Counted from the first letter of the stretch, positions 16,061 to 41,943 are shown. The stretch: DNA of 48,116 bases from Candidatus Phycocordibacter aenigmaticus (GCA_045401115.1 CP174359.1:1-48116), one strand, 5' to 3'. Notes: generated by a model from the letters alone, not told the origin. Numbers and translations: made by a program.

Positions 16061-16065
16061 AAATT

Positions 16066-16220
16066 TAGTAAGTGGGAGGTGGAATGTGGTAAGTGGTTCA
16101 TGGGAAATAGAATGTGGTTAATAGTTAGAAGGTGGTAGGTGGTAAGTGGAAGGTGGTTAAGAGTTAGAAGGTAGAATGTGGTAGGTGGGAGGTAGAAGGT
16201 GGGAGGTGGTAAGTGGGGTG
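16066..16220. repeat. Degenerate heptamer tandem array (TRGNARG), ~21 units, filling the intergenic space between the four-helix-bundle gene and obgE
   Basis: TAGTAAG TGGGAGG TGGAATG TGGTAAG TGGTTCA TGGGAAA TAGAATG TGGTTAA (tagt) TAGAAGG TGGTAGG TGGTAAG TGGAAGG TGGTTAA (gagt) TAGAAGG TAGAATG TGGTAGG TGGGAGG TAGAAGG TGGGAGG TGGTAAG TGGGGTG. Confidence 0.93.
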
Positions 16221-16583
16221 TTATTTTAGTTTTTTGATGAGTGTACTTAACATTTTTTGTACAGAGGAAAGAGTGTCGTAAATAGGTTTAATATCCTTCC
16301 TATGATAGATCTGTTCCGCAAGAATGAGCTGTGTTTCCAATTCTGCGGCCGATCCGGCTGCAATACCCAGAAATCGCCTAAAATCCTTTTTACTTTCTCG
16401 TCTTGCACCCTCAGCAATATTAGACGGTATCGACACGGCGCACCGTCGCATCTGACTCACTAAACCATATTGCTCCTCTTGGGGCAAATCCTGCGTAAAA
16501 TCATATACCGCGGCTGCGAGCTCTATCGCAGACTGCCATACTCGCAAACTACGGAAGGCGCTCTGTACATTACCATCTTCCAT
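16221..16583 (-). CDS. Four helix bundle protein (23S rRNA intervening-sequence protein / Avd-like family)
   Basis: 120 aa with the family signature FRSLRVWQSAIEL...YGLVSQMRRCAVSIPSNIAEG...FRRFLGIAAGSAAELETQL. Confidence 0.95.
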   Translation of the reverse strand: MEDGNVQSAFRSLRVWQSAIELAAAVYDFTQDLPQEEQYGLVSQMRRCAVSIPSNIAEGARRESKKDFRRFLGIAAGSAAELETQLILAEQIYHRKDIKPIYDTLSSVQKMLSTLIKKLK

Positions 16584-16609
16584 ACTATATATTGTACCGC
16601 CTCATTTAA

Positions 16610-16680
16610 CTACTTTTGTAGTTTCCACCTTCTACTTCTGGTCTCTACATTCTACCTACTACTTTCTACCTACCATTCTG
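16610..16680. repeat. Heptamer array (~9 units) in inverted orientation, upstream of the four-helix-bundle and holin-family genes
   Basis: Reverse complement reads CAGAATG GTAGG TAGAAAG TAGTAGG TAGAATG TAGAGAC CAGAAG TAGAAGG TGGAAAC. Confidence 0.85.
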
Positions 16681-16693
16681 CTACAATAGGATT

Positions 16694-17026
16694 ATGAATA
16701 TCTTTTCGCGGTTTTTAGGGACAATACTTGCGCTTCTTTTAAGTGCCTACGTCATTGAAGGGTTCATTGTTGAGAGCCTTTATGCGGCGGCTATTGTGGC
16801 GGTAATGCTCGCTATTATAAATATTACACTGAAGCCAATAGTACTGTTGATTGCGCTGCCACTGCAGGTGCTCACACTCGGACTGTTTACATTTATTGTA
16901 AACGCGCTGTTCCTGCTCTTTGTGGCGAGCTTCGTACAAGGTTTTGCTATTGCGGGTTTTGTCCCTGCCCTCTTTGGCGCACTGGTTATCGCAGCGACAC
17001 TGTGGGTGCTTGATATCTTTTTCTAA
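16694..17026 (+). CDS. Phage holin family (4-TM, DUF360/YvlD-like) membrane protein
   Basis: 110 aa, four hydrophobic segments; motif N..LKPI...IALPL..LTLGLF..IVNA. Confidence 0.9.
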   Translation: MNIFSRFLGTILALLLSAYVIEGFIVESLYAAAIVAVMLAIINITLKPIVLLIALPLQVLTLGLFTFIVNALFLLFVASFVQGFAIAGFVPALFGALVIAATLWVLDIFF

Positions 17027-17049
17027 TACACAGCCTTAATGGACAGTTT

Positions 17050-17082
17050 AAGAAATGTTGGACGTCGGTACCAACATTTCTT
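17050..17082. repeat. Palindrome-family hairpin (degenerate GGACGTC-G-GAC core)
   Basis: AAGAAATGTTGG acgtcggta CCAACATTTCTT. Confidence 0.7.
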
Positions 17083-17090
17083 TAAGGAAA

Positions 17091-17126
17091 AAAACAAAAA
17101 CGCGCCGGGTGGCGCGTTTTTGTTTT
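17091..17126. terminator. Bidirectional intrinsic terminator between the convergent holin-family and secA genes
   Basis: AAAACAAAAACGCGCC gggt GGCGCGTTTTTGTTTT; A/T tracts on both sides. Confidence 0.85.
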
Positions 17127-17136
17127 CTCTTGCTGG

Positions 17137-19617
17137 TTATTTTTTATCGGTGATTCTCCACCCTTGTTTAAGCAGCGACTCTGCTTTTTTAAATTTCATT
17201 TCTTTCGTTTGAGCGCCATCGGTGATTGTTACAACGTCGTTGCGTCCGAACTTGGTCGAGCCATTGTTTTGTTCAACCACAATAGGGTCAATCTTTATCG
17301 GCTCAGCGCCGATGCGTGGGATTCCTTCAGCAATAAACTGTGAAAGGTTTGCTTCGAGGTCGCGGAAGAGGCGGAGTCCTTCTTTGCGATATTCAATAAA
17401 TGGGTCTCTGCCGCCATATGAACGTAGGTTCACTGAAGAGCGGAGGTAATCCATAGTTTCGAGGTGTTCAATCCAGAGCAAGTCATACGCTTGCAACATA
17501 GAGCGACGGACACCACGCACGAGGACCTCTTTGCCGAGTTCCTGCTCTTTCTCGCCGAGCATTTTCTCTGGGTCAACACCAGCTTGTGTTAAATGATTTC
17601 TTGCTGCTTCAAGGACCGCCTCGTCATCACCGGCGAGAATATCGCGGCGGCGTGCGTAAAGTGTTTGTCGTTGGTGGTTAAGCACATCGTCAAAACCGAG
17701 GACATGTTTACGTGCGTCAAAGTTTACGCCTTCGATTTTTTCTTGTGCTGACTCAAGTGAGCGCGAGATCATGCGGTTTTGAATTGGTTCGTCTTCTGCG
17801 ATACCGAGGCGGCCCATGAGACTCTTTACCGCACCTGAGGCAAACACGCGCATGAGTTTATCTTCAAGCGATACAAAGAACTGTGTCTCGCCAGGGTCTC
17901 CTTGACGACCCGCACGACCACGGAGTTGGTTATCAATACGGCGCGCATCGTGGCGCTCGGTACCGGCTACATAAAGCCCGCCGAGTTCTTTTACTTTTTC
18001 ATAGTCGCCTTCCGGTGCGGGGTTACCACCGAGTTTGATGTCCACACCACGCCCGGCGAGGTTTGTTGCGATAACGACCGCACCAACACGCCCCGCCTGT
18101 GCAATAATTTCACCTTCACGTTCGTGGTTTTTTGCGTTCAACATTTCATGCGGAATCCCCTCTTTTTTGAAAAGATCAGCAAGACGTTCATTAACCTCAA
18201 TAGAAGTGGTACCGATAAGTACGGGTTGTCCTTTTTTATTACGCTCTTTTATTTCACGCGCGAGTGCGGTAAATTTGCCGTTTTCGGTTTGGTAAATGAG
18301 GTCATCGTGGTCAACACGTGCTACTGGGCGGTGGGTAGGAATGGGTACCACATCAAGGTTATAGACCGAGCGGAACTCTTCTTGTGAAGTAAGGCCGGTA
18401 CCGGTCATACCTGCGGTCTTTTCATACATACGGAAATAGTTTTGGAACGTCACACTGGCGTACGTTTGGCTTTCGCGCTGTACAGTAATACCTTCTTTGG
18501 CTTCAATAGCTTGGTGGAGCCCTTCTGACCATCGACGGCCCGGCTGCAGACGCCCGGTGAACTCGTCGACAATAACGATACTGTCATCTTTGACGACGTA
18601 GTCTTTGTCACGTGCAAACAACGCATGCGCTTTTACCGCAGCATCGAGGTGATGGACATACTTAATCCCACCTTCGGCATACATGTTTTCAATGCCAAGC
18701 GCTTTCTCTGCCTTTTCAATACCTGAGTCAGTCAGTTGTACTGCGCGTTGTTTTTCGTCAACAGTGAAGTCCTCTTCCGGTTTGAGGCGTGTAGCAATTT
18801 GGGCAAACGTTTGATACAGATCTTCTGGGTCACGCGCTGGACCTGAAATAATGAGCGGCGTTCGTGCTTCGTCAATTAAAATAGAGTCTACTTCGTCGAT
18901 AATAGCGAAGTGGTGCCCACCTTCGTCTGGTGCACGTTGGCGTAGTTCCTCTTTTGAGTACACAAGGTTGTCGCGGAGATAGTCAAAGCCGAATTCATTA
19001 TTAGTACCATACGTAATATCAGCACGATACGCTTCGGCGCGCGTACATGGTCGTAGGTAGTCATTGACTACTTTAAAACTTCCCTGTTCGTCGCGTTCTT
19101 CATCAGTTTCTTCATTCGTATGTGTTGGGTCATACATGAATGACGCGTCATGGTTGAGTATACCCACCGAAAGACCAAGTGCGTGATAGATTTGTCCCAT
19201 CCATATTGCGTCACGTTGCGCAAGGTAATCGTTTACAGTAATGACATGTACTCCTTTACCACTGAGCGCATTCACATAGACTGGTAATGTTCCAACGAGT
19301 GTCTTACCTTCACCGGTACGCATCTCAGCGATACCGCGGTTATGCAGCACATACCCACCAATGATTTGTACGTCATAGTGACGCTCGCCGAGTTGCCGAT
19401 GTGCGACTTCGCGTACTGCAGCAAATGCTTCAGGGAGAAAACTTTCAAGCGTCTGACCGTTTTTGATTCTTTCCTTAAACTCATGAGTGAGTGCAGTGAG
19501 TTCTTCATCAGACCGTTTTTGCATCGCCTCCTCATATGCCGCTACCTGAGGCACCATCTTTTCCCCCTCTTTTAAGAGCGGACTTTGGGAATTTATAAAC
19601 TTAGAGAAAAATTTCAT
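17137..19617 (-). CDS. secA: Preprotein translocase subunit SecA
   Basis: EMRTGEGKTL, HVITVNDYLAQRD, DEVDSILIDEARTPLIISG, GRRWSEGLHQAIEAKE, GTERHDARRIDNQLRGRAGRQGDPG motifs. Confidence 0.99.
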   Translation of the reverse strand: MKFFSKFINSQSPLLKEGEKMVPQVAAYEEAMQKRSDEELTALTHEFKERIKNGQTLESFLPEAFAAVREVAHRQLGERHYDVQIIGGYVLHNRGIAEMRTGEGKTLVGTLPVYVNALSGKGVHVITVNDYLAQRDAIWMGQIYHALGLSVGILNHDASFMYDPTHTNEETDEERDEQGSFKVVNDYLRPCTRAEAYRADITYGTNNEFGFDYLRDNLVYSKEELRQRAPDEGGHHFAIIDEVDSILIDEARTPLIISGPARDPEDLYQTFAQIATRLKPEEDFTVDEKQRAVQLTDSGIEKAEKALGIENMYAEGGIKYVHHLDAAVKAHALFARDKDYVVKDDSIVIVDEFTGRLQPGRRWSEGLHQAIEAKEGITVQRESQTYASVTFQNYFRMYEKTAGMTGTGLTSQEEFRSVYNLDVVPIPTHRPVARVDHDDLIYQTENGKFTALAREIKERNKKGQPVLIGTTSIEVNERLADLFKKEGIPHEMLNAKNHEREGEIIAQAGRVGAVVIATNLAGRGVDIKLGGNPAPEGDYEKVKELGGLYVAGTERHDARRIDNQLRGRAGRQGDPGETQFFVSLEDKLMRVFASGAVKSLMGRLGIAEDEPIQNRMISRSLESAQEKIEGVNFDARKHVLGFDDVLNHQRQTLYARRRDILAGDDEAVLEAARNHLTQAGVDPEKMLGEKEQELGKEVLVRGVRRSMLQAYDLLWIEHLETMDYLRSSVNLRSYGGRDPFIEYRKEGLRLFRDLEANLSQFIAEGIPRIGAEPIKIDPIVVEQNNGSTKFGRNDVVTITDGAQTKEMKFKKAESLLKQGWRITDKK

Positions 19618-19626
19618 TGTTCGCGC

Positions 19627-19635
19627 ATTATAACA
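19627..19635 (-). promoter_or_regulatory. Extended -10 promoter element of secA
   Basis: TGTTATAAT, 9 nt upstream of the ATG. Confidence 0.7.
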
Positions 19636-19649
19636 ACTGAATGCTTATT

Positions 19650-19683
19650 ATAAAAACGCTCCTTATATAAGGAGCGTTTTTAT
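19650..19683 (-). terminator. Perfect 34-bp palindrome; likely terminator of the H1-like gene
   Basis: ATAAAAACGCTCCTTAT/ATAAGGAGCGTTTTTAT. Confidence 0.75.
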
Positions 19684-19704
19684 TTCTAAGCGGGCAAGAA
19701 AAGC

Positions 19705-20007
19705 TTATCGCTTGCGGCGACGAGCTGTCTTCTTAGCAGGTTTACGCTTAGCAGCTTTCTTTGCTGCTGGCTTACGCTTCGCTGCTTTTTTAGCAGGTTT
19801 ACGCTTTGCCGCCTTCTTAGCTGGCTTTCGTTTTGCCGCCTTCTTAGCTGCTGGTTTTCGCTTTGCTGCTTTTTTTGCTGCTGGCTTACGCTTTGCAGTT
19901 TTCTTAGCAGGTTTGCGACGTGCAACTTTCTTTGCTGGCTTACGAGCTGCTGCCTTTTTAGCAGCTTTCTTAGGAGCTGCTTTTTTTGCTGTTCGACGTC
20001 GTTTCAT
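19705..20007 (-). CDS. Histone H1-like Lys/Ala/Arg/Pro-rich basic protein
   Basis: 100 aa made almost entirely of K(R)KP(A)AKKAA repeats. DNA repeats differ at synonymous positions. Followed by its own terminator. Confidence 0.82.
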   Translation of the reverse strand: MKRRRTAKKAAPKKAAKKAAARKPAKKVARRKPAKKTAKRKPAAKKAAKRKPAAKKAAKRKPAKKAAKRKPAKKAAKRKPAAKKAAKRKPAKKTARRRKR

Positions 20008-20310
20008 ACTAGTTCAAAGTTTTTGAATTACTAACTAACTTCCAACTTGTATCGTGCGAACCACTCGACCTTAATGCAACAAAAAACTTTTTTACTAAAA
20101 ACAAAAAATATTTTTTGTTGTTTTGCGTGCCCACATACAAGCTTCTTTAATTATGCGTTGCAAATATGCAACGACAACAAAATAAAAAAGTTTTTGTGGA
20201 TAACAAAAAATATTTTTGAAAAACTTTTTGTAAAAATTTTTAATGTAAATGTGTCTTTTTATTTTTTGTTTTTGTTTTTTAAAAAACGTAATTTTGTTTT
20301 TTACTTTTTT

Positions 20311-21315
20311 TCACATCACGCGCACTTCCGGAGTGATGTGAAGTTTGGTTGTGATGAACACTTTTCTTTGCACGTCACGCATTAATGCGCGTACATCATT
20401 TGCAGTAGCGCCATCTTCAGTAGCAAGCACCAATGGTTGTTTGTCCCACACCAATGCACCGCCCACACGCATACCTTTAGCGCCCACCACATGGTCAAGC
20501 AACCACGCAAGTGGTATCTTCACTCCCCCTTCAGGTAGTGAGAAGATTGGCATACGTGGATACGTGTTTTGGAATATACTCGCCTCTGCTTCAGGAAGAA
20601 CGGGATTTAAAAAGAATGAGCCGGCGCTCCCATACGCACCGCTTTCAGGAAATTTATTTTTTCGTATTGCGCATACGGCATCGCGCACCTCTCCTGCGCT
20701 TGGCGTGTTCTTGTCTTTAAAGTGTTCCTCTAGGTCACGGTAGTCGAGACATGGCGCGGGGGTGCGTGAAAGTCGAAATGTAGCGGAAAGAATTGTATAA
20801 CGCGGTACGTGCATTTTAAATATACTGGTTCGGTAATCAAATGCGCAGTCTTCGTTTTTAATCGTGCGTTCACGTCTGTCTTTATGATCATAGACATCTA
20901 CAGACACGCATGTTTCTGAAAGCGCCGCACCATACGCACCAATGTTTTGAAACACTGCACCGCCAACCGTTCCTGGAATGGCGGAAAGATTTTCAATACC
21001 CCACCATTCATTTTCTACAGTGTGTGCGACAAACACATCCCAGTTCGTGCCTGCATCAACATGCACTAACACTTCTTCAGTATCAATATCGGCGTGCGTT
21101 ATTTTTTGAAACTCCATGCGATACACCACGCCAGTGTACGGTTCATCTTTTGCCAACACGTTTGACCCACCGCCAAGTATAAAAAAATCATTCCGCTCTG
21201 CTTCGAGTGCACGAATACATTCTGCTCGTGTTTCTGGCACTATGACACGGCGCGCTTCGCCGCCCACCTTTAGTGTGGTGAGATCCTTAAACAGTAAGTC
21301 TTGGTGCGTATGCAT
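20311..21315 (-). CDS. murB: UDP-N-acetylmuramate dehydrogenase
   Basis: TTLKVGGEA, ILGGGSNVL, ENLSAIPGTVGGAVFQNIGAYG, FDYRTSIFK, GSAGSFFLNP motifs. ATG at 21315 preferred over the track's TTG at 21321. Confidence 0.96.
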   Translation of the reverse strand: MHTHQDLLFKDLTTLKVGGEARRVIVPETRAECIRALEAERNDFFILGGGSNVLAKDEPYTGVVYRMEFQKITHADIDTEEVLVHVDAGTNWDVFVAHTVENEWWGIENLSAIPGTVGGAVFQNIGAYGAALSETCVSVDVYDHKDRRERTIKNEDCAFDYRTSIFKMHVPRYTILSATFRLSRTPAPCLDYRDLEEHFKDKNTPSAGEVRDAVCAIRKNKFPESGAYGSAGSFFLNPVLPEAEASIFQNTYPRMPIFSLPEGGVKIPLAWLLDHVVGAKGMRVGGALVWDKQPLVLATEDGATANDVRALMRDVQRKVFITTKLHITPEVRVM

Positions 21316-21329
21316 AAACAATTCCCTCC

Positions 21330-21395
21330 ATTATGCGACTGACGGGTGCGAGCTCCAAAAAGATCTTATGTGAGTGCTGCCATCAGCCGCATAAT
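21330..21395 (-). other. Candidate structured RNA leader upstream of murB
   Basis: The minus strand forms a continuous 16-bp helix AUUAUGCGGCUGAUGG/CCGUCAGUCGCAUAAU with two G-U pairs (these are A-C mismatches on the plus strand), followed directly by GGAGG. Confidence 0.5.
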
Positions 21396-21466
21396 AGAGG
21401 CAACTACCTTAGTACGATAGCATTTTTTCTTTCTCTCAAACAACCCGTTCAAAACACGAAATACCA

Positions 21467-21487
21467 TCTTGAGGACCGACCTCGAGA
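21467..21487. repeat. Palindrome-family hairpin, GAGG-ACCGA-CCTC core
   Basis: TCTTGAGG accga CCTCGAGA. Confidence 0.8.
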
Positions 21488-21506
21488 ATGATTGGTTTTA
21501 TAGATA

Positions 21507-21749
21507 TTACGGATGCGTGATGATAGAGACCACGACGTAGTGTGGCTCAACAATGTGAAAATAAAAACGCCATTGTTTATCAATGCGTGCCTGCCATACT
21601 CCCTCGTATCCTTTATACTTCTTTGCGTTAAGCGACGGATGGTGAAAGTCTTCTAGAAGATAGCCGAATTGTTTACGGGTTTTTTTCTGTACCTGCTTTG
21701 GAAAAGCCTTAAATTGCTTAACAGCGCTACCGGCCAGTTGAATCTTCAT
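21507..21749 (-). CDS. RelE/ParE-superfamily type II toxin
   Basis: 80 aa, basic; HPSLNAKK...GVWQARIDKQWRFYF pattern; overlaps the upstream antitoxin by 23 nt. Confidence 0.82.
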   Translation of the reverse strand: MKIQLAGSAVKQFKAFPKQVQKKTRKQFGYLLEDFHHPSLNAKKYKGYEGVWQARIDKQWRFYFHIVEPHYVVVSIITHP

Positions 21750-21996
21750 AGGAGTCTACTTTTTCATCAAACTCTTCTAGATTGGAGAACTCAATGAAAT
21801 TACCGCGTTTAATGTCTTCGAGGCCTGCGCGAATGTCAGCAAGCACTGGGTCACTTGATGCTCCATGTGGCTCTAATACAAGCGTGCCATTTTGTTCACG
21901 TACAGCAAGTATACCGCCCTCACCAACGCCGAGTGCTTCGCGTATCTTTTTAGGGAGTGTAATCACTCCCCGTTGACCGACTTTGACTGTTTTCAT
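21727..21996 (-). CDS. AbrB/MazE/SpoVT-family antitoxin
   Basis: VKVGQRGVITLPKKIREALGVGEG...LVLEP AbrB motif; acidic C-terminus. Confidence 0.88.
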   Translation of the reverse strand: MKTVKVGQRGVITLPKKIREALGVGEGGILAVREQNGTLVLEPHGASSDPVLADIRAGLEDIKRGNFIEFSNLEEFDEKVDSYEDSTGR

Positions 21997-22002
21997 AAAT
22001 AC

Positions 22003-22031
22003 AGAATATCAGAAATACAGATTTTCTGCAA
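22003..22031 (-). promoter_or_regulatory. TA operon promoter with candidate operator
   Basis: TTGCAG-17 nt-TATTCT with an extended TG, 6 nt before the ATG. Inverted repeat CAGAAA-N7-TTTCTG (22010-22028) spans the spacer and overlaps the -35. Confidence 0.6.
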
Positions 22032-22051
22032 ATCCCCCACTCAGTCCTATT

Positions 22052-22074
22052 ATATAAAGGACTGTCCTTTATAT
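22052..22074. repeat. Palindrome-family hairpin (AGGAC-N-GTCCT core)
   Basis: ATATAAAGGAC t GTCCTTTATAT, perfect 11-bp arms. Confidence 0.75.
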
Positions 22075-22105
22075 TCATTAGATTTTCATTTTTGAGATAC
22101 GAAAA

Positions 22106-22123
22106 ACCCCGCCGGAGCGGGGT
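22106..22123 (-). terminator. Intrinsic terminator after the O-antigen-ligase-like gene
   Basis: Minus strand ACCCCGC-UCCG-GCGGGGU followed by UUUU. Confidence 0.75.
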
Positions 22124-22262
22124 GCTTTCGTAGATCTTTGGAAGCCGACACACAAAGTATCAGCACTCACAGAAAATATAATAGCAGTTTTTGAATTTTT
22201 TTCAACTCCCCGCTCCTTTTGGGCCTGTGGGAAAGTGTTTGGTAGTGCACTATTACCGAGCG

Positions 22263-24449: not shown

Positions 24450-24471
24450 TGGGGAAATAATACCATAAGTG

Positions 24472-24613
24472 AGGTAAGTGGGAGGTGGGAGGTAATTTTG
24501 ATGGGAAATAAACGGCTCAGGGGGTGAGCCGTTCTTTTTGGGAGTTAAATGACGGACGTCCGACGTCCGTCATGTGGAAGAGTGCTATGTGCGGACGTCG
24601 GACGTCCGCACAT
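24472..24613. repeat. Composite element copy 1: heptamers + 30-nt hairpin + inverted palindrome doublet
   Basis: AGGTAAG TGGGAGG TGGGAGG (24472-24492); GGAAATAAACGGCTCAGGGGGTGAGCCGTT (24504-24533); ATGACGGACGTC-C-GACGTCCGTCAT (24549-24573); ATGTGCGGACGTC-G-GACGTCCGCACAT (24587-24613). Confidence 0.85.
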
Positions 24614-24647
24614 GGAGAGGTGGTTTTTGGGAGGTATTGAATAATTA

Positions 24648-25391: not shown

Positions 25392-25461
25392 TCCTTTTAT
25401 TGTAGCAATAGAGGAACAACTTGATAGAAACCTTCCCCATGGCGCGGTAGTATATAGCGTA

Positions 25462-27376: not shown

Positions 27377-27409
27377 TCTATTTTAAATTTCAGCGCAACA
27401 CATAAAAAA

Positions 27410-28516: not shown

Positions 28517-28521
28517 GCCCC

Positions 28522-28911: not shown

Positions 28912-28921
28912 AAATATTACA

Positions 28922-31175: not shown

Positions 31176-31290
31176 AACGCTATTATATTGACAATAATCA
31201 GTATATTATAAGAAAGTATAACTTAATTTTAGATTATAGTCATTGTATATAGGTATCGATTATCTTTGGTTTAATTTGATAAACACCGTT

Positions 31291-32007: not shown

Positions 32008-32107
32008 CACGCAAAAAATCATTTATTTCTGCTTCAGAAAAGCAAGTGATAATGGGACATCTCCTTCTTATTTAGATAAGTATAATTTGATAGGTGGAGT
32101 GAACACG

Positions 32108-33172: not shown

Positions 33173-33173
33173 A

Positions 33174-33779
33174 CTACTTTATACAAAAAACATTATAGCC
33201 ACTCGTTTGGTTACTATTTTCTTTACCAAAGATTTTATCTAGCCATTCAAAGAAGTGGGTGCGTTTTGAAAATATTGGGAGTAGATTCGCAGCTGTCGCC
33301 AAAGGTCCGCGCACATTTTGTATTTCTACTGAATTAAAATCTTTTGTCATGTATTCAAACCCATCTCGAGTAAAGCGGTAGAAATCACCATAGTACCCAT
33401 GCATTGGATGGTAGTAGAAAAGAAACGGTGCATAGAGATAGCAATACCCGCCAGGCTTGAGAACACGATATATTTCCCGCATAGCTTTCTGGGGCTCTTC
33501 AACATGTTCAAGAACAGCAATGCAAATAACTGCATCAACACTGTTATCTTCAAATGGTAAGTCGTGGATATCTCCAACAATATCAGGATTGTAGTCAGGA
33601 ACCTTATCTAAGATTTTATAATCAACCTTGTCAGTAAACTCTTTCAGCCAACTGTTCTCAGCAAGTCGATTTTGTTTGTGAGGGTCTACGCGCAACCCGC
33701 CGCCAATATCAATAACAACTTCTTTTTCTAAGAAAATCTTTTTAATCTTATCTTTAAAAAACTTGTCCCAGGGTTTCAT
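33174..33779 (-). CDS. Class I SAM-dependent methyltransferase (type 11-like)
   Basis: VIDIGGG, GDIHDLPFEDNSVDAVIC.AVLEH, RVLKPGG motifs. Confidence 0.92.
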   Translation of the reverse strand: MKPWDKFFKDKIKKIFLEKEVVIDIGGGLRVDPHKQNRLAENSWLKEFTDKVDYKILDKVPDYNPDIVGDIHDLPFEDNSVDAVICIAVLEHVEEPQKAMREIYRVLKPGGYCYLYAPFLFYYHPMHGYYGDFYRFTRDGFEYMTKDFNSVEIQNVRGPLATAANLLPIFSKRTHFFEWLDKIFGKENSNQTSGYNVFCIK

Positions 33780-35215: not shown

Positions 35216-36173
35216 ACACCTCTAGAATATTTGGGATTAGATGTTGGAGTGAATGATTTTTCTTTACGTACGTGTATAGGTCTTCAGTGTTTGTGTATGT
35301 AGGTGCACATACTGCACGTGACAGACTTTCGGTAGTCGGATCTGCAATAGTAACGGGCATGTCTGTGTAGGTTGGGTTAGTAGTTACAACTGGGCAACCA
35401 CAAGCAAGTGCCTCCAACACCACCTTATCAAGTGAGCCAGTCTCTGATGTGTGTACAAACATGGCAGCGCGGCGGTATTCATCCGGAAGGTCTTTATGAG
35501 AAAGGCCTGCTGGCATTTCGACTTTTGCGCCGAGCTTTTGCGCGAGTGCCGCGAGGCGCTCGCGCTCTTCCCCTTCCCCTATGATGCGCACCGGCTTCCT
35601 TGATGCAGCAGCCGCTTCTATCACTAGGTCATGCCGCTTGGTTTTCATTAAGCGGCCAACTGAGAGGAGATGCTCGGCGCGCTCCACTGTCGCGCCCGGA
35701 GTAAATACATCAACATCAATGCCGTGCCCCATGATCTGTACCTTTTTGGATTGAAGGCGGAAGCTCCCTGGTGTTGCGGTAAATATATGTTGCGCAAAAA
35801 CCTCAGCAAAGCGTAGCTTTAAATCAACACTTTTATGCATATACCACAGTCCGAGTGTTTTACCAGTGAGACGCCAAATCCAACCAGCAAGGACGATGTA
35901 CTCAGGATTCATATGTACAAAAACTCCATCGTATTCTCGATGTAGTTTGGAAAGTAGAAGGTAGAAGGTGGTAAGTTGTTGGAATTTGTTAGTTCCGCGC
36001 TCTTTACCGAGTGAGTGCACGGTGACATTTTTCGGCAGATCGTAATCCCCTGTTTGGAGCGCAATGACGTGAATATGTTCAGCGTTCTTTGCGAACTCAA
36101 CCAGCCACCTATGAAAAAAACCGAGTATCGGGTGGTTTCTATCGACAACTTGGGTGATGATTAATAATTTCAT
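35196..36173 (-). CDS. Glycosyltransferase family 4
   Basis: LSVGRL..TKRH, TGSLDKVVLEALACG motifs. Confidence 0.92.
   Translation of the reverse strand: MKLLIITQVVDRNHPILGFFHRWLVEFAKNAEHIHVIALQTGDYDLPKNVTVHSLGKERGTNKFQQLTTFYLLLSKLHREYDGVFVHMNPEYIVLAGWIWRLTGKTLGLWYMHKSVDLKLRFAEVFAQHIFTATPGSFRLQSKKVQIMGHGIDVDVFTPGATVERAEHLLSVGRLMKTKRHDLVIEAAAASRKPVRIIGEGEERERLAALAQKLGAKVEMPAGLSHKDLPDEYRRAAMFVHTSETGSLDKVVLEALACGCPVVTTNPTYTDMPVTIADPTTESLSRAVCAPTYTNTEDLYTYVKKNHSLQHLIPNILEVYAAHNF
35948..35975. repeat. Four heptamer units inside a glycosyltransferase CDS
   Basis: TGGAAAG TAGAAGG TAGAAGG TGGTAAG; encodes (Q)LTTFYLLLS(K) on the minus strand. Confidence 0.75.
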
Positions 36174-36177
36174 ATTT

Positions 36178-36233
36178 TAGTAAGTGGTAGGTGGAAAGTG
36201 GAAGGTGGTTAAGGGAATGCAAGAAATGGGAAA
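36178..36233. repeat. Heptamer array (~8 units) ending 4 nt before the ATG at 36173
   Basis: TAGTAAG TGGTAGG TGGAAAG TGGAAGG TGGTTAA GGGAATG CAAGAAA TGGGAAA. Confidence 0.88.
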
Positions 36234-36250
36234 CAACATATACAGATTAA

Positions 36251-36715
36251 CTACTTTTTAGGCTTGGTGAAAATGACGTATTTGTAGAGGAAGAAATTAA
36301 ATACCGCGAGTATGCCGAGGGAGAATACCTGCGCAAGGAGGTACCACACGTCAAACACCACCGTCAGTAGGTACATTATGGCACTGTTGGCGATGAGGTT
36401 AAAAATCCCTCCGATGAAGAACTTGATAACCTGCCAGTGGGCGCCGGCGACTGTTTTGTCCTCGAAGGTCCACAGCTTCTGCAAGAAAAAGTTAGAAATT
36501 GTCGCAAAGGCGAAGGCGATATTCACCGAGTACCAGTATGGCACCAGAAAAACTTCCTGGAGAAGAAAGAGCGAGGCGAGATCAACGAAGGCGGCGGTGC
36601 CGCCGCCGATCAAGAAACGTATATAGACCAGCGGCACGCGGTTTAGAGGCGGCGGGAGGATGCCGAGGAGCCAGGTGGTGAACCTGCTGTGCTGTGTGGG
36701 ATGGTTATGATCCAT
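36251..36715 (-). CDS. GtrA family membrane protein
   Basis: RFLIGG..AAFVDL, NFFLQKLWTF, KFF, four TM segments. Confidence 0.92.
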   Translation of the reverse strand: MDHNHPTQHSRFTTWLLGILPPPLNRVPLVYIRFLIGGGTAAFVDLASLFLLQEVFLVPYWYSVNIAFAFATISNFFLQKLWTFEDKTVAGAHWQVIKFFIGGIFNLIANSAIMYLLTVVFDVWYLLAQVFSLGILAVFNFFLYKYVIFTKPKK

Positions 36716-37316
36716 TGTTTTTTATTAATTGTTCTAACTCGTCGAAGGAGGTGACAGTCGGCACAGAGCCGATGCCGGGGTTGCCGTCGCGACGCATTTC
36801 ATACACAGCGACGTCAGGACACTCCTCTTTAACTGCAAGGAGTTGTGAGTCGTGGTCGTCGATGAAAAAATAAGGACCGTCATATTTTTTTATTAACGCA
36901 GCAACTTCACTTCCTTTTGTGGCGCCGCCGGCAAGCGGTATGTTAGATACTGCCTGCACAATAGCGAATACTCCTGACGCTTCTAGTTTTGCTTTTTGAT
37001 ATGACGGGCACGCGCGGTTGGCGGTCACAATAACTGAATGTTCCCCGTGTATATCGAGAAATTTTTGTGCGTCGGGATACACATACTGCGCGTATTCACC
37101 TGGATCAAGTGTTATAAGCCCTTCGGTAAACAACCGCTCTAACTCACGAGATACTTCAGCACGCCGCGGATTGTTTAAGTTAAATTTTTCAGCTCCCAAC
37201 ATCACTTCGTCAAACAACTCTTTCACGTCAGGCACTACAGTGAGTTTGTTTGAAAGATACTGATATGAGCGATAGGTATCAAAGAGGGTTCGGTCGAAGT
37301 CGATAAAGAAGGTCAT
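36705..37316 (-). CDS. HAD-superfamily hydrolase
   Basis: FFIDFDRTLFDT motif I; TKG; FFIDDH motif IV. Confidence 0.85.
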   Translation of the reverse strand: MTFFIDFDRTLFDTYRSYQYLSNKLTVVPDVKELFDEVMLGAEKFNLNNPRRAEVSRELERLFTEGLITLDPGEYAQYVYPDAQKFLDIHGEHSVIVTANRACPSYQKAKLEASGVFAIVQAVSNIPLAGGATKGSEVAALIKKYDGPYFFIDDHDSQLLAVKEECPDVAVYEMRRDGNPGIGSVPTVTSFDELEQLIKNNGS

Positions 37317-37320
37317 AAAT

Positions 37321-37362
37321 TAGTAGGTGGTAGATAGAAGGTGGAAAGTGGTTAGTGGAAGA
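37321..37362. repeat. Heptamer array (6 units) between the two HAD genes
   Basis: TAGTAGG TGGTAGA TAGAAGG TGGAAAG TGGTTAG TGGAAGA; ends 4 nt before ATG 37316. Confidence 0.9.
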
Positions 37363-37371
37363 ATAAAGAAT

Positions 37372-37875
37372 TTATGTTTTTAGAGCTACTTTCTCAAGCT
37401 CAAATAGGTTTTGTACTGCGATAAATTCCGGCGCTTCTTCTCCAGCGTTTTTAGCGGTCGGGCGACGCATACGTACCACCTGCACACCCGGTACATTATC
37501 ACGAACATCGGCAAGCTCGTTGAGAGAGTCGTCGGCAAAAACAGCAGGAGTGTTTTCTGAATGCTGTGCGAGATAGCGCCTGATAGCTTCTGACTTTCCC
37601 CCTTCTGTTACATAAAGCGCTTCAGTAATGCGAGAAATAAGACGAGTGTTTTCTAATTTTGCTTTTTGGACCTCTTCTACACCACGCGTCACTACTACCA
37701 ACTCATGTCCTGCTTTTTTCCATGCGGCAAGAAAACCAGAAACATCGTCGTATAAAAACGGTGAGAGATCAGAGAGGGTTACGTTCTGGGTTCCTAAAAT
37801 AAAATCAGCTTCAAGTGCGTTGTAGAACGCTTCTGTGTTGAAAAGTGTTCGGTCGAAATCAAGGAAGAAAAGCAT
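37372..37875 (-). CDS. HAD-superfamily hydrolase (tandem paralog)
   Basis: FFLDFDRTLFNT, VVVTRG, GGKS, VFADDS motifs. Confidence 0.85.
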   Translation of the reverse strand: MLFFLDFDRTLFNTEAFYNALEADFILGTQNVTLSDLSPFLYDDVSGFLAAWKKAGHELVVVTRGVEEVQKAKLENTRLISRITEALYVTEGGKSEAIRRYLAQHSENTPAVFADDSLNELADVRDNVPGVQVVRMRRPTAKNAGEEAPEFIAVQNLFELEKVALKT

Positions 37876-37880
37876 AGAGA

Positions 37881-37894
37881 TGGAAGGTGGTTAG
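37881..37894. repeat. Two heptamer units 5 nt before ATG 37875
   Basis: TGGAAGG TGGTTAG. Confidence 0.55.
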
Positions 37895-37958
37895 TTGACT
37901 GTTTAAGTAATTTTGATATTATAGTTATATTACGACGAAAAGGGGCCCAAACGGTTAA

Positions 37959-38486
37959 CTACCTAAGGCCCCCTTTTCTTTTGCCAATTTTCTCCCTAAT
38001 ATCACCCTTACTTAGATCATCAAAGTATCTACGGGTGATTTTTTTATACAAAGATGATGCATTACTGTTCGGGAAAAGCACTTTTTCCAACCTCTCCTCT
38101 TCAAGAAGAAATTTCACCATTCGAAAATAGTCGCCGTCTCCAGAAACAAGTACTACTTTATTGAAATCATCTTTTTTATAAAGACGATGCATACATGCAA
38201 AAACAATTTCAGTATCAACATTCCCCTTTTTAATACTTTTCATTGCCGGATTATGTTTACGGAACTTAACAATAAAACCAGCTTTTTGTATCGCATCATA
38301 TAGTTCGTCATTTGCAGCATCAACAAAGCCAAGCCAATAGTATGCCTCTTCAACTGCGTATTTTTTCTGCAGATAAATACGAAAACGCGCTAGATCAATC
38401 TGCCAAGGATTGGTTGGATGTTCTGTGGTTCCCAGATGGAGATTCTGTCCGTCAATAAAGGCAATATTTCTTCGATCTTTCTGCAT
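37959..38486 (-). CDS. NYN domain (LabA/DUF88, PIN-like) protein
   Basis: AFIDGQNL, KGNVD, LVSGDGDY motifs. Start moved to ATG 38486, 6 nt after TGCTACTAT. Confidence 0.92.
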   Translation of the reverse strand: MQKDRRNIAFIDGQNLHLGTTEHPTNPWQIDLARFRIYLQKKYAVEEAYYWLGFVDAANDELYDAIQKAGFIVKFRKHNPAMKSIKKGNVDTEIVFACMHRLYKKDDFNKVVLVSGDGDYFRMVKFLLEEERLEKVLFPNSNASSLYKKITRRYFDDLSKGDIREKIGKRKGGLR

Positions 38487-38490
38487 ATTT

Positions 38491-39486
38491 TTATAGTAGC
38501 AAAGAAATAACCGCTTTTGCGAGTGTGTGCGAATCATGGCGCACGAGGCTGCGGCGTACTGCGTCGGTGGCGTGCTGTTTGGGCGCTGGGGCAAGCATAG
38601 GAATGCGAAGCGCGTGTTCGGTATAGTCGTCATGCACGAGGCATTCGCGAGCTTTTTTATACGCGGCAATGACATCTTTGGCTGGTTCGGCGTTGTTGAT
38701 GACCACAGTGTCGGGTTTTCTGCCGGTGTAGCGGGTGAGCGTATCGACGTGGTCAGTCACTGACATGTCATCAGTCTGGCCGCACTTGGTCATGAGGTTT
38801 GCCACGTATGCGACCTGCGCATCAGTTTTCTGTAGTGCTTCGGAGACTCCTTCAAAAAGAAAATTAGGGATGATGCTGGTGTAGAGATCGCCCGGCCCAA
38901 GGAGTACGAGGTCAGCCTCATTGATGGCACTAAGCGCCGAGGTGTACGCCGGAGTGGATGAATCAAGAAAAATATCGGTAATGACGCCGCGTGTTTGTTC
39001 CCCAGGATGTTTGTCTATTGCCGCCTCCCCGTGCGTTGTACTGCCGTCTGCATACTGCGCGACGAGACGCGCGTGTGTTTCAGAGACCGGTACAACACGG
39101 CCGCGGATGTTGAGAATCTTTGTTGCCTCTTCAATGGCACGCGCTTCGCTGCCGAACATGTCGGTAAGTGCAACGAGAAAAAGATTGCCGAGGTTGTGCC
39201 CTTTAAGCCCTTCCTCGCCGCGGTCAAAGCGGTACAACATGAGTTCGCGCACGATGTTCGGTTCCGTGTCGCCGGCGGCGAGTGCGGCGAGTGCCATGCG
39301 TACATCCCCCACTGGCAGTTTGCCGAATTGGTCCATGAGCCTGCCTGTTGAACCACCGTCGTCTGCCACGGATACTATGGCAGTTATGTCGATGGTGTCG
39401 GCGTATTTCTTAAGTCCTGAGAGGGATACGAAAGTGCCGGTGCCGCCGCCGATGGTTACTATGCGTTTTTTGCTGTTATCTGCCAT
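38491..39486 (-). CDS. yvcK: YvcK/CofD-like family protein (UDP-GlcNAc-binding, gluconeogenesis factor)
   Basis: IVTIGGGTG, VADDGGSTG, GHNLGNL, GPGDLYTSIIPN, NLMTK.GQT, HDS..LA motifs. Start at ATG 39486. Confidence 0.92.
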   Translation of the reverse strand: MADNSKKRIVTIGGGTGTFVSLSGLKKYADTIDITAIVSVADDGGSTGRLMDQFGKLPVGDVRMALAALAAGDTEPNIVRELMLYRFDRGEEGLKGHNLGNLFLVALTDMFGSEARAIEEATKILNIRGRVVPVSETHARLVAQYADGSTTHGEAAIDKHPGEQTRGVITDIFLDSSTPAYTSALSAINEADLVLLGPGDLYTSIIPNFLFEGVSEALQKTDAQVAYVANLMTKCGQTDDMSVTDHVDTLTRYTGRKPDTVVINNAEPAKDVIAAYKKARECLVHDDYTEHALRIPMLAPAPKQHATDAVRRSLVRHDSHTLAKAVISLLL

Positions 39487-39496
39487 AGAGTATGTA

Positions 39497-40639
39497 TCAT
39501 TGTTGATTGAGGCAATCGGTGAATGCTTGTTGATATGCCTTTTTATACGCTTCTTTTTCCATAAGCACTGAGTGTGCTTTTTTGCGGGCGCGACCGCCCA
39601 TGAGGACGCGTGCGTTCGGGTCAGCGAGTAAGCCACTTAACGCCCGAGCAATAACGTACGGCAGTGGACGCACGACCAGCACGTCATGCTGCTTTTCATA
39701 CACTTCGCCGACAACACCGACGTCAGTGGTGACGATAGGCAGCCGGGCGAGACCGGCATCAATGAGTGTCATGCCGTAACCTTCAAAGCGTGAGAGCTGC
39801 AGAAAAATATCGGCATGTTCATAGTATGACGCGAGATCTTTCTGCCACCCAAGAAAGTGTACCCTGCTGGCTATGCCAAGGTTTCGGGCGCGTTTCTTTA
39901 GAAGATTCTCGCGTGAACCGCTGCCGGCAATGTAGAGGTGTGCCTCGGGTACATGCACCATAGCTTCAAGCGCGACGTGTATTCGCTTTTCTGGTTCCAA
40001 ACGAGAGACCATCAGTATCACCGGATGTTCAGGGTTGTATGCGGTGGGACGTTTTGACGCGACCTCGACATCCTCTATTGACGTGTCGTGTATAGGAAGG
40101 ACGGTGATCTTTTCTTTGTTGACGAACCAAAGACTTTTTGCGATACGTTTAGACACCACGCGCACGCGTGTTGCCTGTGCAATGACAAAAAAAGCGATGA
40201 ATACTTCGATAAATTTCCGAATAGATGAGAGAAAATAGTGAGGGTTGAATGCGTCAGTATGGATTTGTGTTTGCAGTGACACATGCAGGGCGCGCGCGAT
40301 GCGCCAGCCGGCAAAGCCTAGGAAAAATGGGTCTTGAGTGGACACGACGAGGTTGTCGGTATTTTTTTCAGGAGCGTGTGGCGCGAGCGCGCGCCCTTCG
40401 CGCATACCTTCGAGAAAGGCATTTGAATATGCCTCTTTTTTTGATGCGCCACCAGGGAAAACAACACGGACGTTACTTGAAAGTTCAAACACTTGTCGCT
40501 CGCCTACACCGAGAACAAGGATGGTGAGTTTTTCAAACAACGTGCCGTAGGATTGCATGCGCGCCTGCACCGCGCTATCTGCGTCGAGTATCTTCGCGTC
40601 TGTTGAGAGCATAAGTGCGCGGGTGTTTTGCCTGGTCAT
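39497..40639 (-). CDS. Glycosyltransferase family 4
   Basis: VSRLEPEK, EGYGMTLIDA...PIVTTDVG motifs. Confidence 0.92.
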   Translation of the reverse strand: MTRQNTRALMLSTDAKILDADSAVQARMQSYGTLFEKLTILVLGVGERQVFELSSNVRVVFPGGASKKEAYSNAFLEGMREGRALAPHAPEKNTDNLVVSTQDPFFLGFAGWRIARALHVSLQTQIHTDAFNPHYFLSSIRKFIEVFIAFFVIAQATRVRVVSKRIAKSLWFVNKEKITVLPIHDTSIEDVEVASKRPTAYNPEHPVILMVSRLEPEKRIHVALEAMVHVPEAHLYIAGSGSRENLLKKRARNLGIASRVHFLGWQKDLASYYEHADIFLQLSRFEGYGMTLIDAGLARLPIVTTDVGVVGEVYEKQHDVLVVRPLPYVIARALSGLLADPNARVLMGGRARKKAHSVLMEKEAYKKAYQQAFTDCLNQQ

Positions 40640-41772
40640 ATATGTTTAAAGAACATAGCAGTTTCTTCCACCATGCGGGCTATAGAAAATCGGTCTACCC
40701 TATTTTTTGCATTTCCTGCTAAGCGTGCGCGACTTTCGGGAGCGTTGAGCAATTTCTCTATGCGGTGTGTGAGCGTTTTAGTATCGTTCGGCTTTACCAG
40801 GTAGCCATGTACGTTGTCTTCAATAAGTTCAGGATTACCTCCCACTTTGGTGGTGATGATCGGCACGCCCACCGACGCCGCTTCAAGAAGAAGGTGTGAG
40901 AAGCCTTCGTAGCGGGTATTGAGCACGAACACGTCGGCCGCACGCATGTAGCGGAGTGCTACGGCACGATCTACATTGCCGGTAAATACTACAGAATCCG
41001 CAACACCGAGGTCTTCCGAAAGAGCGACAAGGCGGTCCATCTCGGGGCCGTCGCCGACAATGAGAAGGCGCAAGTCAGGAATACGCTTGCAGAGTTCTGC
41101 GTGAATGCGGATGAGCGTGTCAAAGCCTTTCCACGGCACCAGGCGGCTGACTGAAATGACCAACTTGCCTTTAAATTTAAGAAGACCGCGGATGACTTGT
41201 TTAAGTCCGACAGGTTCTATATCAACGCCATTGTAGATAACGGAGATACGTTTTCGCTCTACTCCCCACTCGCGTACGATTTTACCGAGGTATTTGCTGG
41301 GTACTATCACCTTTACGGCTTGCCGGGCTACCCACCGTTCGAGGGTGCGCATGATGCGAATGAGGAGAGGAAGAGTGGTGTCTTTTTGAAATTCTTCAAC
41401 TGTTTTTGTATAGCGAAATCTACCACCTGCCTGTTCCCACGCATAATCACCCACCATTTTAAGTACAAACGGTTTACGCATGAGTTTTGCTGCGAGTGCC
41501 GACGGAAGGCCGACTGAGATAGGATCTTGAGCATACACTACATTCGGTTTGAATTTGTGGATACGTGCCACTGTTTTGAAAAAATATGCCAGATGCCGTA
41601 GGAATTTTGGATAGCCACGCACTTCACGATACGGAAGCACCGATACACTAAAGCCATAAGCTGGTAAGCGCTCTAGGAGTGTTTTGGAATAGGTCGCTGG
41701 ACCACCCCCTTCAGGTGGGAAAAGCCCCGTAGCTATGAGTATTTTTTTACCTTGAGATGATTTTTGTACCAT
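40636..41772 (-). CDS. Glycosyltransferase family 4
   Basis: ATGLFPPEGGGPATY, SVSRLVPWKG, EGFSHLLLEA motifs. Confidence 0.94.
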   Translation of the reverse strand: MVQKSSQGKKILIATGLFPPEGGGPATYSKTLLERLPAYGFSVSVLPYREVRGYPKFLRHLAYFFKTVARIHKFKPNVVYAQDPISVGLPSALAAKLMRKPFVLKMVGDYAWEQAGGRFRYTKTVEEFQKDTTLPLLIRIMRTLERWVARQAVKVIVPSKYLGKIVREWGVERKRISVIYNGVDIEPVGLKQVIRGLLKFKGKLVISVSRLVPWKGFDTLIRIHAELCKRIPDLRLLIVGDGPEMDRLVALSEDLGVADSVVFTGNVDRAVALRYMRAADVFVLNTRYEGFSHLLLEAASVGVPIITTKVGGNPELIEDNVHGYLVKPNDTKTLTHRIEKLLNAPESRARLAGNAKNRVDRFSIARMVEETAMFFKHI

Positions 41773-41779
41773 TTATTGC

Positions 41780-41808
41780 ATCATACCTCTACACACCGAT
41801 GGGGACAA
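41780..41808 (-). promoter_or_regulatory. sigma70-type promoter of the 41772 glycosyltransferase
   Basis: TTGTCC-17 nt-TATGAT, 7 nt before the ATG. Confidence 0.65.
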
Positions 41809-41813
41809 TAAAG

Positions 41814-41943
41814 CGGGAAATAGAAGGTGAAAAGTGGGAGGTGGTAGGTAGTTAATGGTAAGTGGAAGGTGGTAGGTAGAAGGTGGAAATAAACGGCTCA
41901 GGGGGTGAGCCGTTTATGTGTAGCGAGGACCGACCTCGCTACA
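41814..41943. repeat. Composite element copy 2: ~11 heptamers + identical 30-nt hairpin + GAGG-ACCGA-CCTC palindrome
   Basis: CGGGAAA TAGAAGG TGAAAAG TGGGAGG TGGTAGG TAGTTAA TGGTAAG TGGAAGG TGGTAGG TAGAAGG TGGAAAT; 41885-41914 is identical to 24504-24533; TGTAGCGAGG accga CCTCGCTACA (41919-41943). Confidence 0.88.

Follow-up and report, generated by a model that had tools for sequence, protein, structure and literature searches.

Heptamer arrays at gene boundaries of Candidatus Phycocordibacter aenigmaticus as probable arms of palindromic spacer elements

Candidatus Phycocordibacter aenigmaticus (GCA_045401115.1) is a Paceibacteria/Parcubacteria bacterium of the Patescibacteria (Candidate Phyla Radiation, CPR) with an ultra-small genome of 721,362 bp, referred to below as G000; the nearest relatives of its ObgE are found in Paceibacteria/Parcubacteria metagenome-assembled genomes. 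Here we analyse arrays of degenerate 7-nt repeats in a stretch of 48,116 nt (CP174359.1:1-48116; hereafter the window). The unit is repeated head-to-tail and reads GTRGNAR on the purine-rich strand and YTNCYAC on the pyrimidine-rich strand, and the arrays adjoin the genes of ObgE, a 23S_rRNA_IVP (Avd-like) protein, a holin-family protein, a Wzy_C/TPR O-antigen-ligase-like protein, a GT1 glycosyltransferase, GtrA, two HAD-like proteins and a GT4 glycosyltransferase (Table 1). An earlier reading of the DNA alone (the sequence-only reading) had taken such arrays for possible CU-rich translation leaders, protein-binding tracks or promoter elements. The explanation that we consider probable, with a good share of doubt left, is that they form part of palindromic spacer elements built of heptamer arrays, either as one of two arms or as the single arm that survives.

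The heptamer arrays of the window and their setting

Tandem Repeats Finder with periods of 7, 14, 21 and 28 nt recovers repeats at 16068-16217, 16645-16673, 24478-24493, 35950-35969, 36180-36209 and 41821-41886. Three consecutive GTRGNAR units with no more than two mismatches match the window 35 times, compared with 0.02 matches expected from dinucleotide shuffles, and a position-weight scan of all 721,362 bp (four GTRGNAR units, at least 24 of 28 positions) gives 14 arrays compared with 0–1 in shuffled sequence. The arrays thus stand where the sequence-only reading had placed them, far beyond chance. Its description of them as dispersed is true within the window and fails for the whole genome, since nine of the 14 are in the window and 12 are in the first 103 kb. 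The weak case of opposite polarity that it had mentioned at 20031-20044 does exist, as two units only, and is at chance level. Thirteen of the 14 arrays lie outside solid coding sequences (CDSs). Their units are imperfect and neighbouring units are seldom identical, and because of this degeneracy only four arrays pass a strict lag-7 test in G000, no more than at lags 6 and 9. Rfam and tRNA scans of the window returned no matches, and there is no rRNA in it. A metagenome scan for strain variation returned one relative only, 72% identical and without an array.

Table 1. Heptamer arrays of the window and the gene enclosed by two of them
Feature	Position	Strand	Context
Largest array, ~21 degenerate units	16065-16106 and 16118-16219	-	Spans the whole IVP-to-obgE spacer
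23S_rRNA_IVP gene, 120 aa (Avd-like four-helix bundle)	16221-16583	-	Pfam PF05635, E 1.4e-36
Array	16615-16676	+	Pyrimidine-rich on plus; on minus, the 5' arm of the pair around the IVP gene
Four-unit array	24471-24498	-	Between the H1 terminator-like hairpin 24511-24533 and the extended -10 of the Wzy_C gene
Five-unit array inside the GT1 glycosyltransferase CDS	35947-35981	-	Sense orientation; encodes QQLTTFYLLLSK (aa 65-76)
Array	36177-36218	-	GtrA-to-GT1 intercistronic spacer; ends 3 nt from ATG 36173
Array between the two HAD-like genes	37320-37361	-	Occupies a 55-nt G-free spacer
Remnant, ~2 units	37881-37895	-	Below scan thresholds; TGGAAGG begins 5 nt from ATG 37875
Array, ~11 units	41813-41896	-	Between hairpins H1 41892-41914 / H2 41921-41941 and the full GT4 promoter

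The polarity of the arrays follows the genes. For all seven intergenic arrays of the window the gene that starts beside the array has the pyrimidine-rich strand as its sense strand, and the holin gene, the one plus-strand gene of the region, has its array flipped accordingly, which bears out the claim that placement and polarity are non-random. The same holds outside the window for trmD, whose array is pyrimidine-in-sense before the start (...CTACTATATACT, 6 nt, ATG). Replication-strand polarity can be rejected: the GC skew points to an origin near 200 kb and a terminus near 535 kb, and within the single replichore that includes the window eight arrays have the purine strand on plus and five the pyrimidine strand. 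The scan of the genome also showed that the pyrimidine-before-start rule proposed by the sequence-only reading covers only half of the pattern. Several arrays are as close to the stop codon before them as to the start codon after them, and three arrays outside the window, in 3' untranslated regions, are purine-in-sense directly after a stop codon, namely at 88605 (after a small Cys-rich open reading frame, ORF), at 102872 (behind an HTH-like gene of 305 aa and ahead of a terminator hairpin) and at 448610 (dnaX). One further array, at 88793, is purine-in-sense upstream of a promoter (TATACT, 6 nt, ATG). Gene calls outside the window and in the relatives discussed below are crude longest-ORF calls.

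Two observations were made near these outlying arrays. The Cys-rich ORF itself (MKNIEQHIQDEKGFSCDSCPCAGLCTVACRCTIAGGCDFCGCERSEKLL; 88630-88777, minus strand) has a leaderless-type promoter, TATACT, 6 nt, ATG, and carries the purine arm after its stop; it has no Pfam match and could be a small secreted or metal-binding peptide. On the plus strand at 87540-87835 there are about 290 nt that are very poor in G, with a 77-nt array at the start and an H1 hairpin at the end; the only ORF of this tract is of low complexity and has no Pfam match, and the tract may represent a non-coding RNA or the remains of a decayed element.

The host lacks an anti-Shine–Dalgarno (anti-SD) sequence, a point that the sequence-only reading had wished to see checked. 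The single 16S rRNA gene (G000 61785-63242, minus strand, outside the window) ends in GGAUCAUUUCC, as compared with GGAUCACCUCC in E. coli; the tail, CAUUUCC, lacks the anti-SD core CCUCC, which is also missing in 20 of the 20 relatives of the order with a readable tail. Upstream of 526 G000 genes no purine-rich SD signal was found. The words enriched there are TATAA, TATAC, ATACT and TACTA; TAnnnT hexamers have their maximum at -15 to -12 relative to the start codon and are present in 40–50% of the genes with a spacer of at least 11 nt over a background of 8%, and T occupies position -1 in 57% of genes. With -10 boxes 6–9 nt ahead of start codons, no SD signal and no CCUCC, the lineage seems to be largely leaderless, and we infer that leaderless transcription and translation are the default in G000. 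The genome encodes a four-domain S1 protein (415.0-416.1 kb), a KH protein (659871-660242) and RNase III.

An SD-type ribosome-binding site (RBS) is therefore rejected as an explanation of the arrays, because their sense strand is pyrimidine-rich, the tail is CAUUUCC and there is no SD enrichment; pairing of the arrays with the 16S tail is rejected as well, both being pyrimidine-rich. The purine strand does hold several perfect canonical SD words (GGGAGGTGG; 16072-16212, 24478-24495 and 41834-41843, plus), which should be meaningless in a host devoid of anti-SD and would be strong RBSs if cloned in E. coli. Beside or inside four arrays there is also a GGGAAAT/GGGAAAC motif on the plus strand, ATTTCCC in gene sense (16100-16108, 24500-24508, 36224-36232 and 41815-41822), which in sense looks similar to the host's own 16S tail (CAUUUCCAUG).

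Against this background the arrays fall into different transcriptional settings. Four of them, at holin, Wzy_C, trmD and GT4, are followed by a -10 box at the leaderless position, and the promoter contacts claimed by the sequence-only reading hold in the window: the holin array 16615-16676 is directly upstream of TACAAT 16682-16687 (6 nt, ATG 16694), the Wzy_C array is in the -35 region of TGgTATTAT 24457-24465 (minus; 7 nt, ATG 24449), and the GT4 array is upstream of the -35 of TTGTCC, 17 nt, TATGAT (41808-41780, minus; 7 nt, ATG 41772). The Wzy_C, GT4 and trmD arrays are in addition downstream of a terminator-like hairpin. Lying between such a hairpin and a leaderless -10, they are probably untranscribed promoter DNA and part of no mRNA. 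The counts of the promoter and terminator consensus scans are at chance level, and only the GT4 promoter and the H1 hairpin were informative.

Four other arrays, at obgE, GT1 and two HAD-like genes, have neither a -10 box at the leaderless position nor a terminator upstream, and they end 3–5 nt from the ATG; this arrangement makes it probable that they belong to intercistronic RNA. A distance of 1 nt separates the IVP stop from the obgE array, and the array 37320-37361 begins 10 nt past the stop 37372 and ends 3 nt before ATG 37316. The shared terminal unit that had been reported for three of these arrays was recovered, with TAGTAAG, TAGTAAG and TAGTAGG beginning 5, 4 and 4 nt from ATGs 16060, 36173 and 37316, respectively. 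The fourth array claimed to end close to a start, before ATG 37875, stands at the distance claimed and has only about two units; a TATAAT box ~45 nt upstream could place this remnant in a short 5' leader. The terminal CYTACT of the sense strand was considered as a -10 box that would make obgE, GT1 and the HAD-like gene leaderless and finds no support: it has no A at -11, and two of the three examples stand 5 nt from the ATG, a spacing used by no canonical TATACT box of G000. Nowhere in the genome are there longer tracts without G than the pyrimidine arms, which reach a maximum of 146 nt in the IVP–obgE spacer; over 160 nt this spacer contains a single G (1% G) and only one start-like codon.

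The H1 hairpin beside two of the arrays is a REP-like structure, (A)TAA-ACGGCTCA-N5-6-TGAGCCGT-TTA(T), in which the stem is conserved and the loop varies. G000 carries 36 copies of it between genes, two of them in the window and 34 at further sites, and a second hairpin, AGCGAGGnCnGnCCTCGCT, has 10 copies, including that at 41921-41941. What looks like a composite element at 24.5 kb and 41.9 kb is an array beside a generic H1 hairpin. Elsewhere in the window a giant ORF of more than 3,596 aa (1-10788, minus) runs off the end; it has 840-nt internal repeats, evident from nested ORFs that recur at 18, 858 and 1698, and a 15-nt Tandem Repeats Finder unit that is met at 1962, 2802 and once more at 3765.

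Inverted pairs, the IVP gene and the repeat core

Two of the window arrays, 16615-16676 and 16065-16219, are inverted with respect to each other and enclose the IVP gene; read on the minus strand, the latter is the 3' arm of the pair. The array 16065-16219 is predicted to pair with the flank 16584-16700 at -62.5 kcal/mol (z -4.7). The IVP gene has a probable leaderless promoter of its own, TACAAT 16591-16596 (minus), 7 nt, ATG. The enclosure recurs in relatives: inverted heptamer arms bracket four of four IVP genes in genome G014, each with a different unit family, and both of the IVP genes checked in G039, so that every IVP gene checked in G000, G014 and G039 sits between inverted arms. IVP–obgE synteny is found again in G002 and in G039, where this orthologous locus is one of the two checked and its arms use a different heptamer, AAGTTTN. 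Across 61 relatives the IVP gene is present in six of the seven array-rich genomes and in 22 of the 54 others, a weak co-occurrence that is confounded by other heptamer families.

The distribution of the family is patchy, the GTRGNAR pattern being present in seven of the 61 related genomes with reversed-pattern controls near 0. In the complete G014 genome (748,944 bp) there are 45 GTRGNAR-family arrays compared with 0–1 in shuffles, and 84 strict lag-7 arrays of any unit compared with four or fewer at lags 5, 6 and 8–11; the other unit families there include CAGCTTT/AAAGCTG, CTAGAAG, GAACTCT and ACAGTGA. Inverted pairs of this family are formed in G014, G003 and G039; those of the GTAG type number 13 in G014, one of them at 258870-258970, and six in G003, all of them purine-then-pyrimidine and none reversed. 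In G014 the order is stop codon, purine arm, A-rich loop of 20–60 nt, pyrimidine arm, start codon, and most pairs are between co-directional genes. In both genomes the arms begin within ~11 nt of the stop and most end within ~14 nt of the start. The pairs are predicted to fold into long stems with about one mismatch per 7 nt (z -3 to -7). When adjacent arrays of any family in G014 are considered, 22 of 22 are inverted with the same unit family in both arms. Single arms obey the same geometry: by eye, on the crude ORF calls, ~23 of 25 classifiable arms in G000, G014, G003 and G039 are pyrimidine-at-start or purine-at-stop. The CAGCTTT family of G014 places its T-rich CAGCTTT arm after stops and its A-rich AAAGCTG arm before starts, so a CU-rich tract before the start is not a general requirement. 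The strongest array hairpin of G014 (z -7.0) is directly upstream of a four-domain S1 gene (353353-354450, L061), and the G000 ortholog of this gene has no array.

Array positions turn over fast. Among orthologous spacers of G000 and G014 the arrays are common to none of the 13 G014 array genes and, in reverse, to none of two, and most window array genes have no G014 ortholog. None of 30 relatives has the G000 array upstream of obgE; in G002 and G039 the arrays at this place differ in unit or arrangement. The nearest array-bearing relatives share only ~55% protein identity with G000. Unit order and loops differ at every locus, with nothing like the near-identical copies of REP, REPIN or MITE elements.

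The unit is not uniformly degenerate. Just outside the best-scoring run of three units, the units keep G-T-R-G (~1.0, 1.0, 0.6 and 0.95 bits), positions 5–7 are nearly free and poor in C, and the unit at the 5' boundary is (T/A)TAG. Retention of the GTRG core at a 7-nt phase with free linkers is a pattern that slippage followed by uniform decay would not produce: the core is maintained by something, be it recognition or a biased generating process. The statement of the sequence-only reading that the arrays are not slippage debris is therefore partly right, the core being held in phase as the three linker positions vary.

Palindromic spacer elements and competing explanations

We propose that the full element, read on either DNA strand, would consist of a 5' purine arm (GTRGNAR)n, a loop and a 3' pyrimidine arm (YTNCYAC)n, and that it would typically occupy a spacer from the upstream stop to the downstream start or -10 box. 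Its loop may be short or may hold an Avd-like 23S_rRNA_IVP gene, as in the window. A palindrome reads alike from both strands, so its start-side arm, the 3' half of the element, is pyrimidine-in-sense and its stop-side arm purine-in-sense; the former is the polarity that the sequence-only reading had noticed. Such elements may arise and turn over by slippage-type expansion combined with some core-specific constraint or recognition. Arrays are plausibly tolerated flush at starts because, with no SD system and mostly leaderless starts, there would be no RBS for them to interfere with. On a transcript that carries both arms, these would pair into a stem of ~30 bp, mismatched at one position in every seven, and the stem would be a substrate of the RNase III type, comparable to a 23S rRNA intervening sequence. 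A pyrimidine arm without its partner would be a G-free, unstructured spacer devoid of start codons. In our opinion the arrays are neither dedicated translation leaders nor a defined promoter module.

Several results weigh against the palindromic-element proposal. The G000 arrays are mostly single arms and make only one pair, around the IVP gene, so that the palindrome is a model imported from relatives at ~55% protein identity. In that one pair the probable promoter of the IVP gene lies downstream of the 5' arm, and the two arms may therefore never share one RNA. Arms of the same locus are no more complementary than arms of different loci (22.6 and 22.7 pairs of 28, p 0.6); this gives no locus-specific evidence of selection on the stem, and the pairing potential comes from the family consensus alone. 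Loops are not conserved, which leaves a copy-and-paste mobile element unsupported. Pyrimidine-at-start single arms outnumber purine-at-stop ones, ~15 to 8, and this excess leaves room for some selection favouring the start-proximal arm. Finally, the proposal leaves unaccounted for the tight cluster of nine of the 14 G000 arrays in 26 kb.

The same observations have to be confronted with other explanations. If the pyrimidine arm were an SD-independent initiation region for internal cistrons, serving as a landing pad for S1 or as a track that leads post-termination ribosomes to the first AUG, one would understand why the probably intercistronic arrays of obgE, GT1 and the two HAD-like genes stop just short of the ATG, why the IVP–obgE spacer is almost free of G and of start-like codons, and why a genome without SD and anti-SD still encodes a four-domain S1; the same initiation proposal has been made for the TAACTGA repeats (PMC4679880). 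We nevertheless judge it unlikely. Arrays of the same polarity precede the -10 boxes of the apparently leaderless Wzy_C, GT4, trmD and holin genes, purine-in-sense arms follow stop codons, the pyrimidine arm is predicted to be paired with a purine arm in relatives, another family puts an A-rich arm before starts, and orthologous genes in G014 and G000 manage without arrays. The three purine-in-sense arrays after stops, the pairs in relatives and the three different contexts of the arrays likewise speak against the CU-rich translation leader of the sequence-only reading. Among G014 genes with an array flush at the start, leaderless -10 boxes are present in 24% compared with 39% (p 0.10), a depletion that is a trend only.

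That four arrays occupy the -35 region of recognisable leaderless promoters or lie upstream of it may instead suggest double-stranded DNA tracks that bind a transcription factor or nucleoid protein, or an UP-like element, whose length would tune envelope genes, possibly by phase variation. A conserved core at a fixed phase with free linkers does resemble an array of binding sites, and many of the array genes belong to the envelope and glycosylation, the classic setting of repeat-mediated switching. This appears improbable to us, since the position of the array relative to -10 and -35 differs each time and four arrays have no downstream promoter, which likewise leaves a fixed promoter element unsupported as a general reading; moreover, with a phase of 7 bp neighbouring sites face different sides of the helix, adjacent units are so rarely identical that slippage should be slow, and the housekeeping genes obgE, trmD and dnaX also carry arrays. 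A leader role may apply to the four intercistronic arrays and a DNA-binding or promoter role to those next to promoters, and neither of the two accounts for all arrays. Plain replication-slippage debris, with the polarity in the window a side effect of nearly all local genes lying on one strand, has in its favour that heptamers are the commonest long simple sequence repeats (SSRs) in many prokaryotes, for which polymerase slippage has been proposed (Mrazek 2007, as related in PMC4679880), that the G000 arrays are degenerate and do not exceed lags 6 and 9 in the strict lag-7 test, and that array positions are not conserved. It is very improbable, having already been largely refuted by the polarity and core tests: the array of the plus-strand holin gene is flipped, ~23 of 25 single arms and 19 of 19 pairs in four genomes obey the stop/start rule, decay is uneven across the unit, the two arms are of one unit family in 22 of 22 pairs, and the family persists over genomes that are ~45% protein-diverged while positions turn over.

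Three candidate functions were rejected on the gene content or on the unit itself. The G-poor composition (1% G) fits a rut site of Rho, and no Rho is encoded in G000 or G014: the Rho_RNA_bind domain was found in neither, with nine of 14 control genomes scoring, E. coli and B. subtilis among them. The purine arms of G014 read UAG-N4 like a HutP-type operator, and HutP (PF09021) was not found in four array-rich genomes; the units of G000 are mostly UGG and not UAG. A G-quadruplex on the purine strand is not a conserved property, as the purine-arm units hold GG at most and the G014 units (GTAGNAR) have no G run.

Starting from the palindromic-element proposal one may go further and imagine that the palindromes and the Avd-like IVP are one system that lets Patescibacteria without SD carry long spacers or a selfish IVP cassette in operons without polar effects. 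Zipping of the stem would bring stop and start together and allow reinitiation, or an RNase III cut would leave a near-leaderless downstream mRNA; a lone arm would be a start-free track to the true AUG, and the GTRG core at its 7-nt phase might be bound by a dedicated protein, for which the pentameric IVP would be a candidate. We offer this as a speculation that is quite unlikely to be correct as a whole.

Relation to known repeats and significance

The arrays belong to an already documented class of bacterial intergenic heptamer repeats: they are tandem 7-nt units beyond chance, mainly intergenic, with an excess of period 7 that is clear in G014. The closest description is that of the TAACTGA repeats of marine Beggiatoaceae and of some Cyanobacteria and Bacteroidetes (MacGregor 2015, PMC4679880), for which binding of S1, Csp or CsrA was proposed. 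Both are 7-nt tandem units, almost all intergenic, that face a downstream start and often end a few nucleotides from it (in the window, seven of seven intergenic arrays face the start and four end 3–5 nt from the ATG), without a canonical RBS, ahead of genes that have no common function and include essential ones, and with a patchy phylogenetic spread. In contrast to TAACTGA, the unit GTRGNAR/YTNCYAC is degenerate, with a 4-nt core and free linkers, inverted pairs exist in relatives whereas only one inverted case among 170 sets was reported in BOGUAY (PMC4679880), and the host has no anti-SD altogether. The GGGAATC repeats of Xanthomonas and GGGGA(T/C)T repeats of Nostoc (Rehm et al. 2015, PMC4692102) are also related; the Xanthomonas arrays are 89–93% intergenic and include 70–75 close convergent pairs able to form stem-loops. 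Common features are intergenic heptamers near the ORF end, convergent pairs (one in the window, around IVP, 13 in G014 and six in G003) and no preference for the leading or lagging strand, whereas those repeats are G-tract and quadruplex-forming, ours have no such tracts, and the Xanthomonas arrays are positionally conserved between species, unlike those of G000 and G014. Kin to the class are also the cyanobacterial short tandemly repeated repetitive heptamers and the long SSRs of Mrazek 2007, the latter as related in PMC4679880.

The IVP pair resembles the 23S rRNA intervening sequences of Coxiella and Leptospira, in which an S23p/IVP ORF lies in an RNase III-cut stem (PMC4990558). In G000, G014 and G039, too, an IVP-family ORF is flanked by complementary terminal arms, and the host has an RNase III gene. 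The stem is 28 bp in the Coxiella element (PMC4990558), and the arms here measure 42–155 nt. Unlike these sequences, the element is between protein genes (holin and obgE) and not in helix 25 or 45 of 23S rRNA, its arms are heptamer arrays, and the IVP gene apparently has an internal promoter of its own. With REP, BIME, REPIN and MITE elements the arrays have in common that they are short dispersed extragenic inverted repeats able to form hairpins between co-directional genes; they differ in having no conserved full-length copy, only the 4-nt core and the phase being common and the loops unrelated, and no link to a RAYT or transposase turned up, with no test aimed at one.

Heptamer arrays at gene boundaries have been reported for years from Beggiatoaceae, Xanthomonas and cyanobacteria with no accepted function. 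Our results extend them to a CPR lineage that has no anti-SD and is seemingly mostly leaderless, and indicate that the identity of pyrimidine strand and sense strand results from the geometry of a palindrome and is no evidence of leader function. They add that the same kind of arms brackets every 23S_rRNA_IVP (Avd-like) gene checked, and they narrow the question to the factor that recognises a 4-nt core at a 7-nt phase and to the processing of the stem. They also caution annotators against taking such tracts for ribosome-binding sites or promoters. Should the arrays indeed help reinitiation or processing, they would have a bearing on how internal cistrons are translated in bacteria without Shine–Dalgarno sequences.

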